64,000 nt of DNA from assembly GCA_963806185.1 (NCBI GenBank), contig CAWDXE010000007.1:576001-640000 (forward strand). Reading direction: 5' to 3'. Numbering within the stretch: the stretch's first letter is position 1; each line of letters starts with the position of its first letter. A model generated the notes under the pieces. That model made no database searches. It was not told the origin of the DNA and saw only the letters and a list, made by a program, of their open reading frames with translations. Below are positions 8,249 to 13,505 of the stretch, in pieces. The position numbers were made by a program, and so were the translations under genes. This stretch comes from an uncultured candidate division Zixibacteria bacterium (lineage in GTDB: Bacteria; Zixibacteria; MSB-5A5; GN15; FEB-12).

Positions 8249-9211
8249 ATGGGAATGTCTAAGCAGGATCGTCTGCTGTTTATCCTTAATCTGCTGCGCA
8301 GTCGCAAGAATCTCAACGCGGCGCAACTGGCCGCGGAATGCGGTGTGACCGAGCGGTCGATCTATCGCGACATGCTTTCGTTGTCGGAGGCAAATGTCCC
8401 AATTTACTATGACAACGGATACAAGGTTGCTTCCGAAAACTTCCTCCCGCCGCTCAATTTCAGTTTTGAAGAATACCGGGCGTTGAAAATGGCGCTGGAG
8501 TCGTCGCCGCTGTCCAAAGCCGGTTCGTATGCAGAACTCTTCCGGCAGGTGCAGGCAAAGATCGAGGCCGGACTCACTGACGGTGTACGCGAACAGAAGC
8601 GCTTCGCCATTCCTACGACAGACGTAGAGGTGCCGCTTACGGTTCACGAGGAGTTGGCCGCTTCCTTCTTTACACAGATCGAAGAGGCAGTACTGCACGA
8701 TCTGGTGCTCGACATGGAGTACGATTCAATAGCGGCAGGGGTGGCGCGACGAGAGGTGGAGCCGTATTTCATCGTGTTCCGAGGGAGAGCATTTTATTTT
8801 GTCGCTTATTGCCATGAGCGCGAGGATTTCCGGACTTTTCGCATTGACCGGGTCAAAGCGCTGGCGATTAAGGCAGAGCACTTCCGTCGAAAATCAGGAA
8901 TTGATGCCAAGTCTTACTTCGGAGGCAGCTGGCAGTTTCATCGGGGTGAGCCGGTCGAAGTAGTCGTTCGATTCGTCGGCCGGGCAGCCCGAGTCGTCGC
9001 CTCCAGCCGGCATCACGCGGACGAAACGGTCGAAGTGGTGAATCCGGAGGAGGTGATTTACCGGGTTACCGTCTCCGGCATCGAGGAGATTAAGCGGTGG
9101 ATACTCGGGTTTGGCGCGGAGGCGTTAGTCCTTGAACCTCCTGAACTTAGAGACTCCATGGTAGCTCTGGTCAAGGCGCTCGCAGCGCTTTACGAGCCGT
9201 CTCAAAAATAA
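8249..9211 (+). CDS. WYL-domain transcriptional regulator (YafY/PafB-type HTH-WYL-WCX)
   Basis: wHTH LAAECGVTERSIYRD, WYL core RREVEPY...FYFVAYC..REDFRTFRIDRV, WCX WILGFG..A.VLEP.ELR. Confidence 0.92.
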   Translation: MGMSKQDRLLFILNLLRSRKNLNAAQLAAECGVTERSIYRDMLSLSEANVPIYYDNGYKVASENFLPPLNFSFEEYRALKMALESSPLSKAGSYAELFRQVQAKIEAGLTDGVREQKRFAIPTTDVEVPLTVHEELAASFFTQIEEAVLHDLVLDMEYDSIAAGVARREVEPYFIVFRGRAFYFVAYCHEREDFRTFRIDRVKALAIKAEHFRRKSGIDAKSYFGGSWQFHRGEPVEVVVRFVGRAARVVASSRHHADETVEVVNPEEVIYRVTVSGIEEIKRWILGFGAEALVLEPPELRDSMVALVKALAALYEPSQK

Positions 9212-9231
9212 TCGGAGAAACTTAAACTCGG

Positions 9232-9250
9232 ACTGACGGCATCTGTCAGT
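9232..9250. promoter_or_regulatory. Palindromic operator, probable WYL-regulator site
   Basis: Perfect inverted repeat ACTGAC-N7-GTCAGT between the two HTH/WYL genes. Confidence 0.55.
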
Positions 9251-9289
9251 AGCCAAACTTATCGTGTCCGAAGAAAGGAGACGGCTAGT

Positions 9290-9826
9290 ATGGCAATTAC
9301 CAGACGAGGGGAGCGTCCGAGGAAGACGGCAGTAAGTGATCGCCCCATGACCAAATCAGAACGCATATTATTCCTTATTGAACTGCTCAAGGCTCGCGGG
9401 TGCGTGGAGCGCGGTGAAGCGGCCGAAGCGTGCGGTATTTCTGAGCGGACGCTCTATCGCGACTTGCAGACATTGGCGCGGTTGAACATGCCGGTGGTTT
9501 CAGACGGTCCCTATATCCTGAAGACTGAGCGGGTTTCGATCGAGAATTTTGCCGAGACTTCGGATGCGGAATTGGCCAGGTACAGCCGGATACTGGAGAC
9601 GTTTATTTCCGCGATCAAGTGGGGGATGCCGTTGATTATCACTATGCTGGGGGAGCATCGCTCGACCGAGCATCGGCACCTGGCGCGCGGGATAAAGCTG
9701 AAGCGGAACGGGCTGTGCTTGTCGGTGTTATCCTATCCGCACAAGAAGCCGGCTGACATTCCCATTGCGCGAATAGTGCGGATGTCGGCGGTCACAGATG
9801 GTGCACGGGATGGCATCAACAACTGA
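9290..9826 (+). CDS. HTH_11 protein with short degenerate WYL-like domain
   Basis: AAEACGISERTLYRDLQTL is paralogous to the upstream HTH. C-terminal beta region ending IPIARI. GAAAGGAG RBS. Confidence 0.7.
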   Translation: MAITRRGERPRKTAVSDRPMTKSERILFLIELLKARGCVERGEAAEACGISERTLYRDLQTLARLNMPVVSDGPYILKTERVSIENFAETSDAELARYSRILETFISAIKWGMPLIITMLGEHRSTEHRHLARGIKLKRNGLCLSVLSYPHKKPADIPIARIVRMSAVTDGARDGINN

Positions 9827-9929
9827 GATTGTCCCGTTTATCGTGTAGTGACCGTTTCACAATTGCGGCCAATGTGAGGGTGCGAAGCGGGGGCCGTGTT
9901 GAAATCTTCCGGCTACAGATGCCGCTTGC

Positions 9930-9964
9930 AAAAACACGCCGTCGGGAGCAATTCCCGACGGCGT
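9930..9964 (-). terminator. Intrinsic terminator
   Basis: 12-bp stem ACGCCGTCGGGA/TCCCGACGGCGT with a U-tract on the minus strand. Confidence 0.8.
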
Positions 9965-9990
9965 ATTGGTGTGCGATCGATCGGCAGATT

Positions 9991-10743
9991 TTAGTGGCCA
10001 CTCACCTGCGTGGCGTTGGTTTCCGGAGCCGCGGCCTGTCCGGGCACGCGCAGTGCACGCTTGATGGGCACGGTAAACCGGTTGTGGGCTTCGTCATTTA
10101 CTTCAAAGGTAAACGATTTCTCGAACTCCTTTTCGACCGCTCCTTTGGTGAGGGCGATCGTAGCTTCCGCCGAACCGCCCGCTGCGACGCTCTTGGGGAG
10201 AGTGATGTTGACCAAGTCGGACGGAGCAGAAATAAGCGTCAAGTCCAACGGCTTATCGGACATGTTATTTATACGGAACTCCATCTTATCCCGGACCTTC
10301 TCGCCGAATTGCGACAGGTCGAGCTTGTAGGGCTTGATGGTGATTGGGAAGAGGGAGTCGGGCTTAATAACAACGTTGCAGGTGAACTCGACAAATTTCT
10401 CCGGATCGCCCTCGTTGGTCTCAATTTTCGGACGTTTGATGACGTGGCCGATGTAGCTGCCGGAACCGAAAATGATCTCCAGTTTTGCGCTGTCGCCCAC
10501 GGCGAGCGCATCCTTGTCCAGCGGCGTCTTGGTGCAGCCGCAACCGGGGGTCACTTTGACGATGTGAAGGGTGTCCTCGCCGGTTGACTTGAGCCAAAAG
10601 GCATGGGTAATCTGCGAGTTTTGCGGCACATACCCGAAGTTGAAGGTTGATTCCGAAATGTTCATGCGGGGCACGGCCATAGCTGAGCCGTTGATCAGAA
10701 AGGCGCAGGCTGTGGCGGCGATAGTGTGACGAAAGTTGATCAT
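9991..10743 (-). CDS. DUF1573 Ig-like exported protein (CGC motif), paralog 3
   Basis: Signal peptide, FNFGYV...HAFWLKSTG..TL.I.KVTPGCGCT, second Ig-like domain. Confidence 0.88.
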   Translation of the reverse strand: MINFRHTIAATACAFLINGSAMAVPRMNISESTFNFGYVPQNSQITHAFWLKSTGEDTLHIVKVTPGCGCTKTPLDKDALAVGDSAKLEIIFGSGSYIGHVIKRPKIETNEGDPEKFVEFTCNVVIKPDSLFPITIKPYKLDLSQFGEKVRDKMEFRINNMSDKPLDLTLISAPSDLVNITLPKSVAAGGSAEATIALTKGAVEKEFEKSFTFEVNDEAHNRFTVPIKRALRVPGQAAAPETNATQVSGH

Positions 10744-10834
10744 CTCATTCTCCTCTTCTTGCTTGATTCGTGTAACAATCTATTATAGTTCTATTCTCGC
10801 TACTCGTTCCGGCTTCATCGTCCGCGGCGGACCC

Positions 10835-10868
10835 AAAAAAAAGAGCCGCTCGAAGCATCGAGCGGCTC
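10835..10868 (-). terminator. Intrinsic terminator after DUF1573 paralog 2
   Basis: GAGCCGCTCGA-TGCT-TCGAGCGGCTC followed by T8 on the minus strand. Confidence 0.9.
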
Positions 10869-10894
10869 AGGAATAACTTCCCTCAATTCAGCGC

Positions 10895-11698
10895 TTAGTG
10901 GCTGCCAGTCTGCGGTGTCGCCTGGTTGGCGGTCGGAGCGGCCGGTTCGCCCGGCTGGCCCGGAATCCGCAGGGCCCGTTTAATCGGGACGGAGAAGCGG
11001 GTGTGGGCTTCGTCCGAGAGTTCGAACGTGAAGATTTCCTCGAACTCCTTGGTCAGCGCTGCTTTCGTCAGTTTGATCGTCCCTTCAGCCGTCTGGCCGG
11101 CTGCGATGCTCTTGGGAAGAGTCACCGTCGCCAGTTCGTTCGGCAGGCAGACCATCGAGAGGTCGACCGGTTTGTCGGAGACGTTGACGATCATGAATTT
11201 CATCTGATCGCGCACTTTCTCTCCGAACTGCGAGAGATCGAGCTTGTAGGGGCGAATTCGCACCGGGTAGGTGGAATCCGGCTTCAGCGTGATGTTACAT
11301 CTGATCTCTACGAACTTGTCCGGCGGCCCTTCGTTGGACTCGATTTTGGGACGCTTACTGACGTTGCCTTGGTAATGCTTCGTGTCAAAAATGATCTTCA
11401 GCCGAGTGCTGTCACCGACAGCAAGTACCTCTCGTTCGAGAGGCGCCTTGGTGCATCCTCAGCCAGGGGTCACTTTGATGATGCGCAGGCTATCATCGCC
11501 CGTGGAATACAACCAGAAGTCGTGCACGATCGAGGCGTTCTGCGGAACGAAACCAAAGTCAAAAGTGCTTTCTTTGATCTCGAGCCGCGGAGCCGCCAGT
11601 GCCGCACCGGCTATCAGGAGCATGCCAATCGTCGCACCAATCAGGTGGCGTCGTGCTTTCATCACCGTTGATGTCCTCGCTATTTCAAGTGCTTTCAT
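10895..11698 (-). CDS. DUF1573 exported protein, paralog 2; probable selenoprotein (in-frame TGA at 11461-11459, motif TPG-U-GC)
   Basis: ORFs 11459..11698 and 10895..11263 share one frame. Reading through the single TGA gives IKVTPG*GCTKAPLEREVLAVGDSTRLKIIF..., colinear with paralog 3 (VKVTPGCGCTKTPLDKDALAVGDSAKLEIIF). Alternative start at 11662. Confidence 0.85.
11421..11458 (-). promoter_or_regulatory. Candidate bacterial SECIS element
   Basis: UGA-GGAUGCACCAAGGCG-CCUCUC-GAAC-GAGAGG-UACUUGC. A 6-bp stem plus G.U pair and an AAG/CUU lower stem, with a G-first 4-nt loop 21 nt after UGA. Confidence 0.75.
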
Positions 11699-12441
11699 TA
11701 TTGTTGTCCGGTCATTGTGGTGGCGGCGTTCAGTACCGCCCCCTGGCGAACGGGAACAGTTATACGATAACTTTTCTTGCTCGCCGCTTCAAACGCTTCC
11801 AGAGTAATCGAACGTTCAAATCTTGTCGTGTCGTCAGGCTGGACCAGCCCTATCTGCGCTGTCACCACACCGCCCGGAGCGAGCTTTTCCGGTACGACTA
11901 CCTTCATTTTGTCGGCGGGCACCGAGACGACCTTCAGCCCGAGCTCCCGTCCGGAGAGATTGGACACCCGTATTCCGGCCGATTCCTTGCGAGCGGCTTT
12001 TGCGGTCGGAAACTCGACGGATGACGGACTGACCGATAAAAACGGGTTGGGTGACGGTGATGCAGTCACAACATTCAACCGAACCGGTTCCGGGCTGCCT
12101 TCAAAGAACACATATGCTGTCTGCGAAGTATCCGAGTCTGACTTGGAATTCCAAAGCAGAGTTACGCCGAGGGAATCGCCAGGCTGGGCGAGATCCCCAT
12201 TGCGATCCGCGCGAACGCAGCCGCAACCGGTCTTAACATCCCTAAGGCGGATCGTGTCGGCTGGGCCGGATCGGATCCAGAAAGTATGAGAGACGGTACC
12301 GGACGTGGAAATCATACCAAAATCAAACCGAGTAACTTCAAGAATCCCTTGTGATTGGGCTAATCCGACGGATCCGGTCAGGGAGATGCCCGCGACCAAG
12401 ATCAACCGAAGCCAACTTGTTATATTATAGCGGACATTCAC
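11698..12441 (-). CDS. DUF1573 exported protein (CGC motif), paralog 1, divergent
   Basis: Signal peptide, FDFGMI...SHTFWI...DVKTGCGC. TAATG overlap with paralog 2. Confidence 0.82.
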   Translation of the reverse strand: MNVRYNITSWLRLILVAGISLTGSVGLAQSQGILEVTRFDFGMISTSGTVSHTFWIRSGPADTIRLRDVKTGCGCVRADRNGDLAQPGDSLGVTLLWNSKSDSDTSQTAYVFFEGSPEPVRLNVVTASPSPNPFLSVSPSSVEFPTAKAARKESAGIRVSNLSGRELGLKVVSVPADKMKVVVPEKLAPGGVVTAQIGLVQPDDTTRFERSITLEAFEAASKKSYRITVPVRQGAVLNAATTMTGQQ

Positions 12442-12557
12442 CTATTTCGTTCCATACCAAATCGTTAGTAAGGTAGCCGGAATTTGCCAAAGCGTCAAGA
12501 CATTTCAAGTTTTGTACTTGTTCTGGGTCCATTTTGCACTCAATTTGGACACGGGAA

Positions 12558-13505
12558 ATGGACGATACGACAAATATAGTGACTGCAATTATAGACATCA
12601 GAGAATTAGTCAAGATTTACCCCGGCGGACGTCGGGGTAATATTGTGGCCGTCAACGGCGTCAGCATGACGATTCGACCGGGCGAGATAATCGGGTTGGT
12701 TGGTCCCAACGGAGCGGGCAAAACGACACTCGTCAAAGCGGTACTGGGACTGGTCCGAATCGACAAGGGAGAAGTCTACCTCAACGGATTGCCACCGGCC
12801 AATCCTGAGTCGCGCGAGAAGGTGGGGTATTTGGCGGAGAATCATCGATATCCTTCCCATCTTACCGGCAACAATCTGCTTCGCCTGACGGGGGAGATGC
12901 TAGGGATGTCGGCGAGCAGCATCCGAGAGCGGACGGAAGCACTGTTGCTCCTGGTCGGGATGAGCAAGTGGGGGGAGACTAAAGTCTCGAAGTATTCCAA
13001 AGGAATGGGGCAGCGCATTGGACTGGCCCAGGCGTTGATGGGAGATCCTGATTTATTGCTGTTGGATGAGCCGACCGACGGCATCGACCCCGTAGGAAAG
13101 ATAGAAATCCGCGAGGTGCTCAAGCAGTTGCGCCAACAGGGGAAGACCATTCTGCTCAATTCGCACCTCTTGTCCGAAGTGGAAGCGATAGCCGACCGGG
13201 TAGCGATGCTATCGCAGGGGAAATTAGTGAGGATCGCCACGATGGATGAACTAACCGTTAAGGGCATGCAGTTCGAAATCGTAGCGGACCTCGGCAACGA
13301 GATACTGGAGATTCCACCGGAGATCGGGAAGGTCATCACCATTGCCGCCAAGGGGATGATTGTAGAGCTGAAGAACGAGAGCGACATCAACGGGATTATC
13401 GATATCCTGCGCACGGCGAGAATTACCATTCATTCCATCGCGCCGCGGAAAATGACCTTGGAGCAATCCTTTATTGAGACGATAGCGAAGGCGGAGCAAA
13501 ACTGA
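12558..13505 (+). CDS. ABC transporter ATP-binding protein (ABC-2 type)
   Basis: Walker A GPNGAGKT, YSKGM signature, LLLDEPT, H-loop. Confidence 0.93.
   Translation: MDDTTNIVTAIIDIRELVKIYPGGRRGNIVAVNGVSMTIRPGEIIGLVGPNGAGKTTLVKAVLGLVRIDKGEVYLNGLPPANPESREKVGYLAENHRYPSHLTGNNLLRLTGEMLGMSASSIRERTEALLLLVGMSKWGETKVSKYSKGMGQRIGLAQALMGDPDLLLLDEPTDGIDPVGKIEIREVLKQLRQQGKTILLNSHLLSEVEAIADRVAMLSQGKLVRIATMDELTVKGMQFEIVADLGNEILEIPPEIGKVITIAAKGMIVELKNESDINGIIDILRTARITIHSIAPRKMTLEQSFIETIAKAEQN

Follow-up and report, generated by a model that had tools for sequence, protein, structure and literature searches.

A Zixibacteria DUF1573 gene with a predicted selenocysteine codon and a candidate two-hairpin insertion signal

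The DUF1573 locus and its in-frame TGA

The window, i.e., the whole stretch of 64,000 nucleotides that was analysed, carries a DUF1573 gene with an in-frame TGA, flanked by two intact paralogs with Cys at the corresponding position. The features of the locus are as follows.

10895..11698, reverse strand: DUF1573 gene, predicted selenoprotein, 267 codons from the first ATG
11461-11459, reverse strand: codon 80, an in-frame TGA predicted to encode selenocysteine (Sec), which opens a U-G-C motif
11662 (M13) or 11665 (GTG), reverse strand: likely true start, from the conservation of M13 and a GAGGA upstream
9991..10743, reverse strand: near Cys paralog with C-G-C, 64% identical, from alignment and tree
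11698..12441, reverse strand: divergent upstream Cys paralog, 24% identical, from alignment
10843..10868, reverse strand: intrinsic-terminator-like hairpin, 11 pairs and then 8 T, separating the Sec gene from the Cys paralog on its downstream side

Read from 11698 to 10895 on the reverse strand, the gene is one frame of 267 codons interrupted only by the TGA, as a prior sequence-only reading had described it; plain ORF calling returns the 3' piece alone, in keeping with the split noted there. In the alignments, codon 80 stands opposite the first Cys of VTPG-C-GCTK in the near paralog and opposite the first Cys of KTG-C-GC in the divergent one, which bears out the claimed match to both paralogs, and Cys82 is invariant. 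The frame behind the TGA, held in that reading to be intact, is open and conserved in the homologs. The TAA of the upstream paralog shares one base with the first ATG of the Sec gene. Translation likely starts at M13 or at the GTG rather than at 11698, since at least 90% of 120 aligned proteins conserve M13 and the GAGGA precedes this candidate start. Neither a sigma-70-like promoter nor an Rfam family above its cut-off was found in 9700-12700.

The named relatives of the gene are Zixibacteria. Homologs were present in 41 of the 41 genomes searched, and all 30 loci returned (one per genome, this genome included) hold a gene with TGA at the position of codon 80. The expectation that standard pipelines miss the gene agrees with the database matches, as no full-length copy occurs among the 120 listed; with its signature in at least 190 of 285 genomes, the DUF1573 Sec gene is near-universal in the phylum yet mis-called. 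Contigs of four public runs were compared with the stretch, and one of them, from an RNA library and belonging to a near-identical strain, covers 11329-11505 with five differing letters, none of them listed at the TGA; it informs on the sequence, and neither on expression level nor on habitat. None of the public sequencing runs contained half of the words of the stretch.

A divergent paralog is found upstream of the Sec gene at 21 of 30 loci. In the tree, the near Cys paralog and the Sec gene are sisters (SH-aLRT 87); such pairs of neighbouring Sec and Cys genes are seen again in several lineages, in some of them with starred support, and either repeated duplication or gene conversion would yield them. 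The context of the Sec gene is of the housekeeping kind, divergent from an ABC exporter and a dipeptidase, and by eye the same holds for two of the four named relatives. On the forward strand, an HTH-WYL-WCX regulator gene and, behind it, another HTH gene (8249-9826) converge on the DUF1573 array; the four named relatives, again by eye, have other genes in place of this pair.

Decoding of UGA in this genome

The genome (3.65 Mb, 82% complete) contains the whole set of selA, selB, selD and tRNA-Sec. The three protein genes score 498, 330 and 390 bits, respectively, all above cut-off, and tRNA-Sec scores 63 bits, above the Rfam cut-off; selD carries a TGA of its own. The tRNA-Sec gene is located at C7:74419-74514, about 6 kb from the arsenic island described below and away from selAB, and its acceptor stem shows an A.C mismatch as drawn by ARAGORN. 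Together with the TGA at the Cys position in relatives, this machinery supports the proposed Sec in the U-G-C motif, and, as judged from sequence, the UGA at codon 80 is very probably read as Sec.

Recoding of the UGA to another residue, either to Cys by a SelB-dependent tRNA-ReC or to Trp by a changed code, is very improbable. According to the available text of PMC13582414, tRNA-ReC systems do read a SECIS-marked UGA as Cys. Additionally, four database relatives (P0019, P0022, P0041 and P0042) carry Trp at this position, in P-G-W-G-C, which likely reflects a TGA translated as Trp by a gene caller using another code. Against such recoding, only one tRNA with a UCA anticodon is called at the default threshold, and it is the one with the shape and the Rfam score of a tRNA-Sec; a second appears only at a lowered threshold, which triples all tRNA calls and yields weak ones. 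Moreover, TGA is the commonest stop, ending 516 of 1091 long frames (both strands counted), and the homologs carry Cys, not Trp; a code in which UGA means Trp was rejected on these grounds. A genuine stop or a sequencing error, i.e., a pseudogene beside its two intact Cys copies, is hardly credible and was rejected, given the same TGA with open, conserved frames behind it in at least 190 genomes and the independent contig that spans it.

A coding-score scan of the genome gave 699 TGA candidates, nearly all of them unconvincing; inspection by eye left SelD, two DUF1573 genes and a thioredoxin-like gene. The last, a candidate selenoprotein gene (C3:277892, reverse strand), encodes a thioredoxin-like domain with W-U-S-W-C followed by TPR-like repeats; it has a likely signal peptide, falls below all thioredoxin-type NCBIfam cut-offs and shows a single hairpin, GGACAC-GGUC-GUGUUC, at the canonical distance.

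Two predicted hairpins behind the UGA

Two adjacent predicted hairpins follow the UGA inside the frame; positions are counted with the U of UGA as +1.

11423..11448, reverse strand: near hairpin, +14..+39, loop GAAC at 11437-11434, predicted spacer folding out about 26 nt
11422-11408, reverse strand: far hairpin GCUGUC-GGU-GACAGC, +40..+54, loop GGU at 11416-11414, predicted SelB-binding element

The near hairpin is the one that the sequence-only reading had put forward as the SECIS, with a G-first loop 21 nt after the UGA, and it was recovered as described: GCCUCUC-GAAC-GAGAGGU, extended by AAG/CUU, has core pairs with probabilities of 0.95-1.0. Set against 200 shuffles, the 62-nt stretch is only modestly more stable (z -2.4), being equalled by 4 of them. 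The segment +10..+45 folds at -14.6 kcal/mol in the Sec gene versus -5.0 kcal/mol in the near Cys paralog, and thus the absence of an equivalent hairpin in that paralog holds at the same position, but the paralog forms a different hairpin further on (UCGCC-GUG-GGCGA). In the available text of PMC13188914, the consensus bacterial SECIS (the model of Zhang and Gladyshev) has a loop of 3-9 nt with G in position 1-2, mostly as G[G/U], at 16-37 nt from the UGA and an energy of at most -7.5 kcal/mol. Taken by itself, the near hairpin of this gene falls within these limits (GAAC, G first, 21 nt, -14.6 kcal/mol) and for that reason could suffice.

Comparison with relatives points elsewhere. The pooled set of homologs sampled across the phylum comprises 201 distinct sequences, of which 109 have TGA at the Cys position, 86 have Cys and 6 another codon; it is enriched for deviants, because sampling was aimed at genomes without an exact match to the signature described below (80 of 95 such genomes were searched, and 40 further regions were fetched from the TGA matches listed, one being omitted). 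In this set, 36 of 109 Sec genes and 15 of 86 Cys genes have a near hairpin whose loop carries G in position 1-2; for a G[G/U] loop at 16-37 nt, the counts are 9 of 109 and 6 of 86. The near loop is A-rich and variable between relatives, its opening base varies even among 34 close Sec genes, and the GAAC of this gene has no G-U; a loop G is thus not conserved at the near hairpin across the Sec orthologs. Since the loop varies between relatives, the near GAAC hairpin is probably not the site bound by SelB, and its proposed identity with the SECIS was not supported, the far hairpin being the one that follows Sec.

The near stem has a mean energy of -9.5 kcal/mol in Sec genes versus -3.9 kcal/mol in Cys genes. 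In the former it is preserved, with covariation at pairs 18-35 and 21-32, while its length (about 20 to 36 nt, by eye) and its sequence vary. In phylogenetically independent Sec/Cys pairs, the near stem goes with Sec in 4.9 and against it in 1.1 (median p 0.22, not significant), and a loop at the canonical position shows no association with Sec (p 1).

The far hairpin was missed by the sequence-only reading, and it is far better conserved than the near one. In 34 of 34 distinct close Sec genes, +40..+54 reads GCT GTC GGY GAC AGC, a perfect hairpin in which all four freely variable third positions are fixed; such a fixed set is expected at 0.5% per gene from the codon use of the genome. The 15-mer occurs exactly twice in the genome, each time 39 nt after the TGA codon of a DUF1573 gene, and nowhere else. 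The exact signature UGA-GGN-UGY-N30-hairpin was found in 190 of 285 phylum genomes and its reversed control in none. A far hairpin with a G[G/U] loop is present in 88 of 109 Sec genes versus 7 of 86 Cys genes, with the loop at 42 nt from the UGA in 72 genes and at 53 nt in 14. The near Cys paralog encodes the same A-V-G-D-S residues, but its codons break the far hairpin.

Among the 90 Sec genes aligned in the main register, the far loop is GGU in 75, and its GG is invariant (90 of 90), both Gs also being fixed by a Gly codon. In genomes lacking the exact signature, the far stem is mostly retained, by a double change from G-C to A-U in 11 genes and by a change from G-C to G.U in 6; a C.A mismatch weakens it in 16 of 90 genes, and 26 of 90 cannot form the outer pair 39-55. 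The core of the stem shows one double change, which is a single event on the tree and alters Val to Ile, and the mean energy of the stem is only -6.9 kcal/mol. In 15 genes, the place of the hairpin is taken by CCAC-GGUC-GUGG, which lies 12 nt further on and follows a near stem of greater length. Of 10 independent Sec/Cys pairs on a tree of 194 proteins (quick method, without seven short rows), 8.2 have the far hairpin on the side of Sec and none the reverse, with a median p of 0.008. The far-hairpin test is failed by 5 of 106 Sec genes and passed by 7 of 85 Cys genes; the near paralog is among these seven, in another register, and so is a gene whose hairpin matches exactly. The latter, a TGC-type ortholog (L090, G105:C3, reverse strand) whose genome retains selA, seems to have changed recently from Sec to Cys. 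Four TGA-type DUF1573 genes (L126, L131, L146 and L151, two of them with U-A-C) have no far G[G/U] hairpin by the test.

The two stems abut without a linker and are predicted to coexist (P at least 0.78). In the 90 main-register Sec genes, the two-hairpin structure pairs in 87% of cells versus at most 58% for slid partners, and its covariation is 0.218 versus 0.137 after shuffling; these controls ignore kinship, and the tested structure was derived from the same sequences. RNAalifold, run on the 90 genes, found only four of the far-stem pairs and missed the near stem. In the metagenome genes described below, hairpins were called by folding, because a rule of five unbroken pairs missed bulged far stems and scored 14 of 40 as having none. 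With the protein kept and the codons redrawn, the two-hairpin call is expected in about 20 of the 109 Sec genes versus 83 observed, so that the protein sequence does not account for the two hairpins; the corresponding figures for the 86 Cys genes are 6 and 10.

A pattern scan of metagenomes returned 74 loci, 46 of them DUF1573-like and 40 distinct with enough sequence. Of 37 scanned against the NCBIfam model NF041425, 25 exceed its cut-off of 100 bits, and 23 of these 25 have a near hairpin and a far GG-loop hairpin at 38-39 nt, in other sequence. Over all 40 genes, 29 show the two-hairpin layout, 5 a near G-U loop instead and 6 neither. In this metagenome branch, which has no Cys control, the layout was observed in 27 of 29 genes versus 9.5 expected from redrawn codons. 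The close spacing of the stems recurs in three registers.

The SelD genes of the phylum serve as a guide to what SelB reads. For this comparison, 20 TGA-type SelD regions were fetched, and 30 loci with Cys-type SelD fusions were left out. A G-U occurs in the hairpin loop of all 21 TGA-type SelD genes examined, with the loop at 17-20 nt from the UGA in 14 and at 32-33 nt in 7. Six of these seven distant hairpins (L190, L192, L196, L197, L200 and L201) sit behind a short near hairpin, an arrangement that is a short version of the two-hairpin layout. The far loop of the DUF1573 gene, C-GGU-G, recurs in several SelD genes, and C-GGUC-G is found in the thioredoxin-like TGA gene of this genome. In many genomes of the class, the usual TGA-type SelD is accompanied by another SelD, of the Cys type and lying in a frame of about 740 codons (L156-L185).

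On the 3' side of the A site, the ribosome covers about a dozen bases of mRNA, and in E. coli the spacing between UGA and SECIS matters. We propose that the near hairpin would fold out the 26 nt between the UGA and the far hairpin, and that the far hairpin would thereby be placed where a single SECIS hairpin normally sits. With the near hairpin folded, about 10 single-stranded bases and the 6-pair far stem would separate the UGA from the GGU loop, a distance close to the 17-20 nt of single-hairpin SelD genes, and SelB on the far loop would deliver Sec-tRNA. A SelB of longer reach was considered and rejected: the protein has 633 residues, an ordinary length, and is colinear with the solved C-terminal domain, and it thus shows no sign of a longer reach. 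The explanation as a whole, i.e., Sec at codon 80, SelB on the far hairpin and the near hairpin folding out the gap, is given a probability of about 0.65 from these sequence comparisons. Within it, binding of SelB to the far GGU loop is predicted with good confidence, and the role of the near stem as a spacer is predicted as probable, a little less firmly.

Two other arrangements with Sec at codon 80 were weighed. The two hairpins may be bound or needed as one unit, through a coaxial stack or a second contact by the winged-helix domains of SelB, so that the near hairpin would be more than a spacer. The abutting stems with their predicted coexistence and the recurrence of the close spacing in three registers agree with this, and the C-terminal domain of SelB can touch a second RNA helix. 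However, the near stem is free in both length and sequence, and SelD genes with a single hairpin exist in the same phylum, which makes a joint unit unlikely. It is a shade less likely again that SelB binds the near hairpin and that the far one only assists, by pausing the ribosome or stabilising the fold. The near hairpin lies within the consensus limits, and its stem is stabler in Sec than in Cys genes and covaries; nevertheless, its loop has G in position 1-2 in only 36 of 109 Sec genes and G[G/U] no more often than in Cys genes, and the SelD loops of the phylum contain G-U, like the far loop in most genes.

The preferred two-hairpin reading resembles the consensus SECIS in being a structure inside the ORF and 3' of the UGA, and its far loop, C-GGU-G, conforms to G[G/U]N. 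Unlike the consensus, its G-loop stands behind a second hairpin and beyond 37 nt, at 42 nt in this branch, at 53-54 nt in the sister branch and at 38-39 nt in the proper members of the family named below. A two-hairpin SECIS was not found described in the available text of PMC13188914, PMC10778597, PMC12013277, PMC13582414, PMC13449736 and PMC8318568, while their supplements, the 2005 bSECISearch paper and the 2024 SelD SECIS paper could show such cases; the signal is apparently an unpublished variant of the bacterial SECIS. According to the available text of PMC13188914 and PMC12013277, some bacterial SECIS elements misfit the model, and other classes may exist. The balance tips slightly towards a distinct class, composed of a variable spacer hairpin (20-36 nt) and a short G[G/U]-loop hairpin 38-54 nt from the UGA, rebuilt in at least three registers within DUF1573 genes and present in a short form in some SelD.

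If this reading is true, read-through would survive an in-frame loss of the near hairpin but not a change of the far loop, and SECIS search models would have to widen to about 55 nt. It would also explain part of the selenoprotein genes missed by SECIS-based finders; in one test, bSECISearch missed at least 13% of known selenoprotein genes (PMC12013277, available text). Likewise, the first dozen codons right after Sec would be freed from the SelB motif, whose presence in the first codons after Sec is described as an obstacle to making selenoproteins in bacteria in the available text of PMC10778597, and the layout would offer a design rule for placing Sec inside proteins.

The protein, its family and a possible role

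The protein is not new, as the novelty implied by the sequence-only reading gave way on comparison with the literature. In the available text of PMC1976440, PMC2398784, PMC9312934 and PMC13188914, and in NF041425, a DUF1573 selenoprotein (PF07610, UGC/UxC) is catalogued as OS_HP2 of Olavius algarvensis symbionts; the family has been listed since 2007, and the GOS paper (PMC2398784) links OS_HP2 to pfam07610 and UxC. Novelty of the family was therefore rejected. Within the available text of this literature, neither a function nor a SECIS is given for it. The present protein and OS_HP2 share the Pfam domain, Sec as the first residue of U-G-C and the commonness of Cys homologs. However, in the Zixibacteria-type branch the spacing from U-G-C to the G-D-S turn is longer by one residue than in genes above the NF041425 cut-off, and, unlike OS_HP2 proper, this gene stands in tandem with Cys paralogs. 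At 67.9 bits against the cut-off of 100, the protein falls short of NF041425, so that this model does not name the branch.

The following parts are recognised in the protein.

11594..11662, reverse strand: predicted signal peptide, residues 13-35, with a basic start, a hydrophobic core and an A-L-A end, by eye
11294..11584, reverse strand: DUF1573 (PF07610), residues 39-135, PapD/ASH-like Ig fold in the model
10964..11272, reverse strand: second PapD/MSP-like Ig domain, residues about 143-245, from the model

The match to PF07610 scores 74.5 bits versus a cut-off of 26.1. A structural model built from an alignment of 120 sequences reached a pLDDT of 92, whereas prediction without an alignment was useless (pLDDT 34). 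The model comprises an N-terminal helix and two beta-sandwich domains of the PapD/ASH type and, together with the Pfam match and the fold matches, upholds the suggested Ig-like fold. The by-eye reading of the N-terminus and the modelled helix also point to a predicted signal peptide and an exported protein. In the model, U80-G81-C82 lies on a turn between two strands, before a short strand, and the selenol/thiol pair would thus sit on a surface turn outside the cytoplasm.

The predicted fold resembles that of the Ig domain of VesC (Vibrio VesB/VesC; Z 12.9, rmsd 1.8 over 97 residues), HYDIN (Z 11.1) and 2QSV of P. gingivalis (Z 10.1 over both domains), and CEP192 also has a PapD/ASH-like Ig fold. 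Matches of this type share only 7-18% identity, and the common fold gives no function. No match was found by sequence search of the PDB, and no redox Ig domain was among the best 50 matches of the fold searches, an absence that rules nothing out. No longer, fused form turned up among 46 candidates, a result of little weight.

Redox or soft-metal(loid) chemistry outside the cytoplasm is, at even odds, the favoured guess for the role of the protein, suggested only by the motif and by the position of the second Sec copy in the genome; the Sec gene of the window has no arsenic or mercury neighbours. This second TGA-type DUF1573 gene (C7:86900-87830, forward strand), which has the same far hairpin, is frameshifted after its first domain, near 87545-87558, through error or decay. 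It lies in an arsenic/mercury island with ArsA, Acr3, an ArsC-like protein, a MacB-type ABC protein, an SO_0444/SaoE-like permease, two ArsF, ArsG and HgcA.
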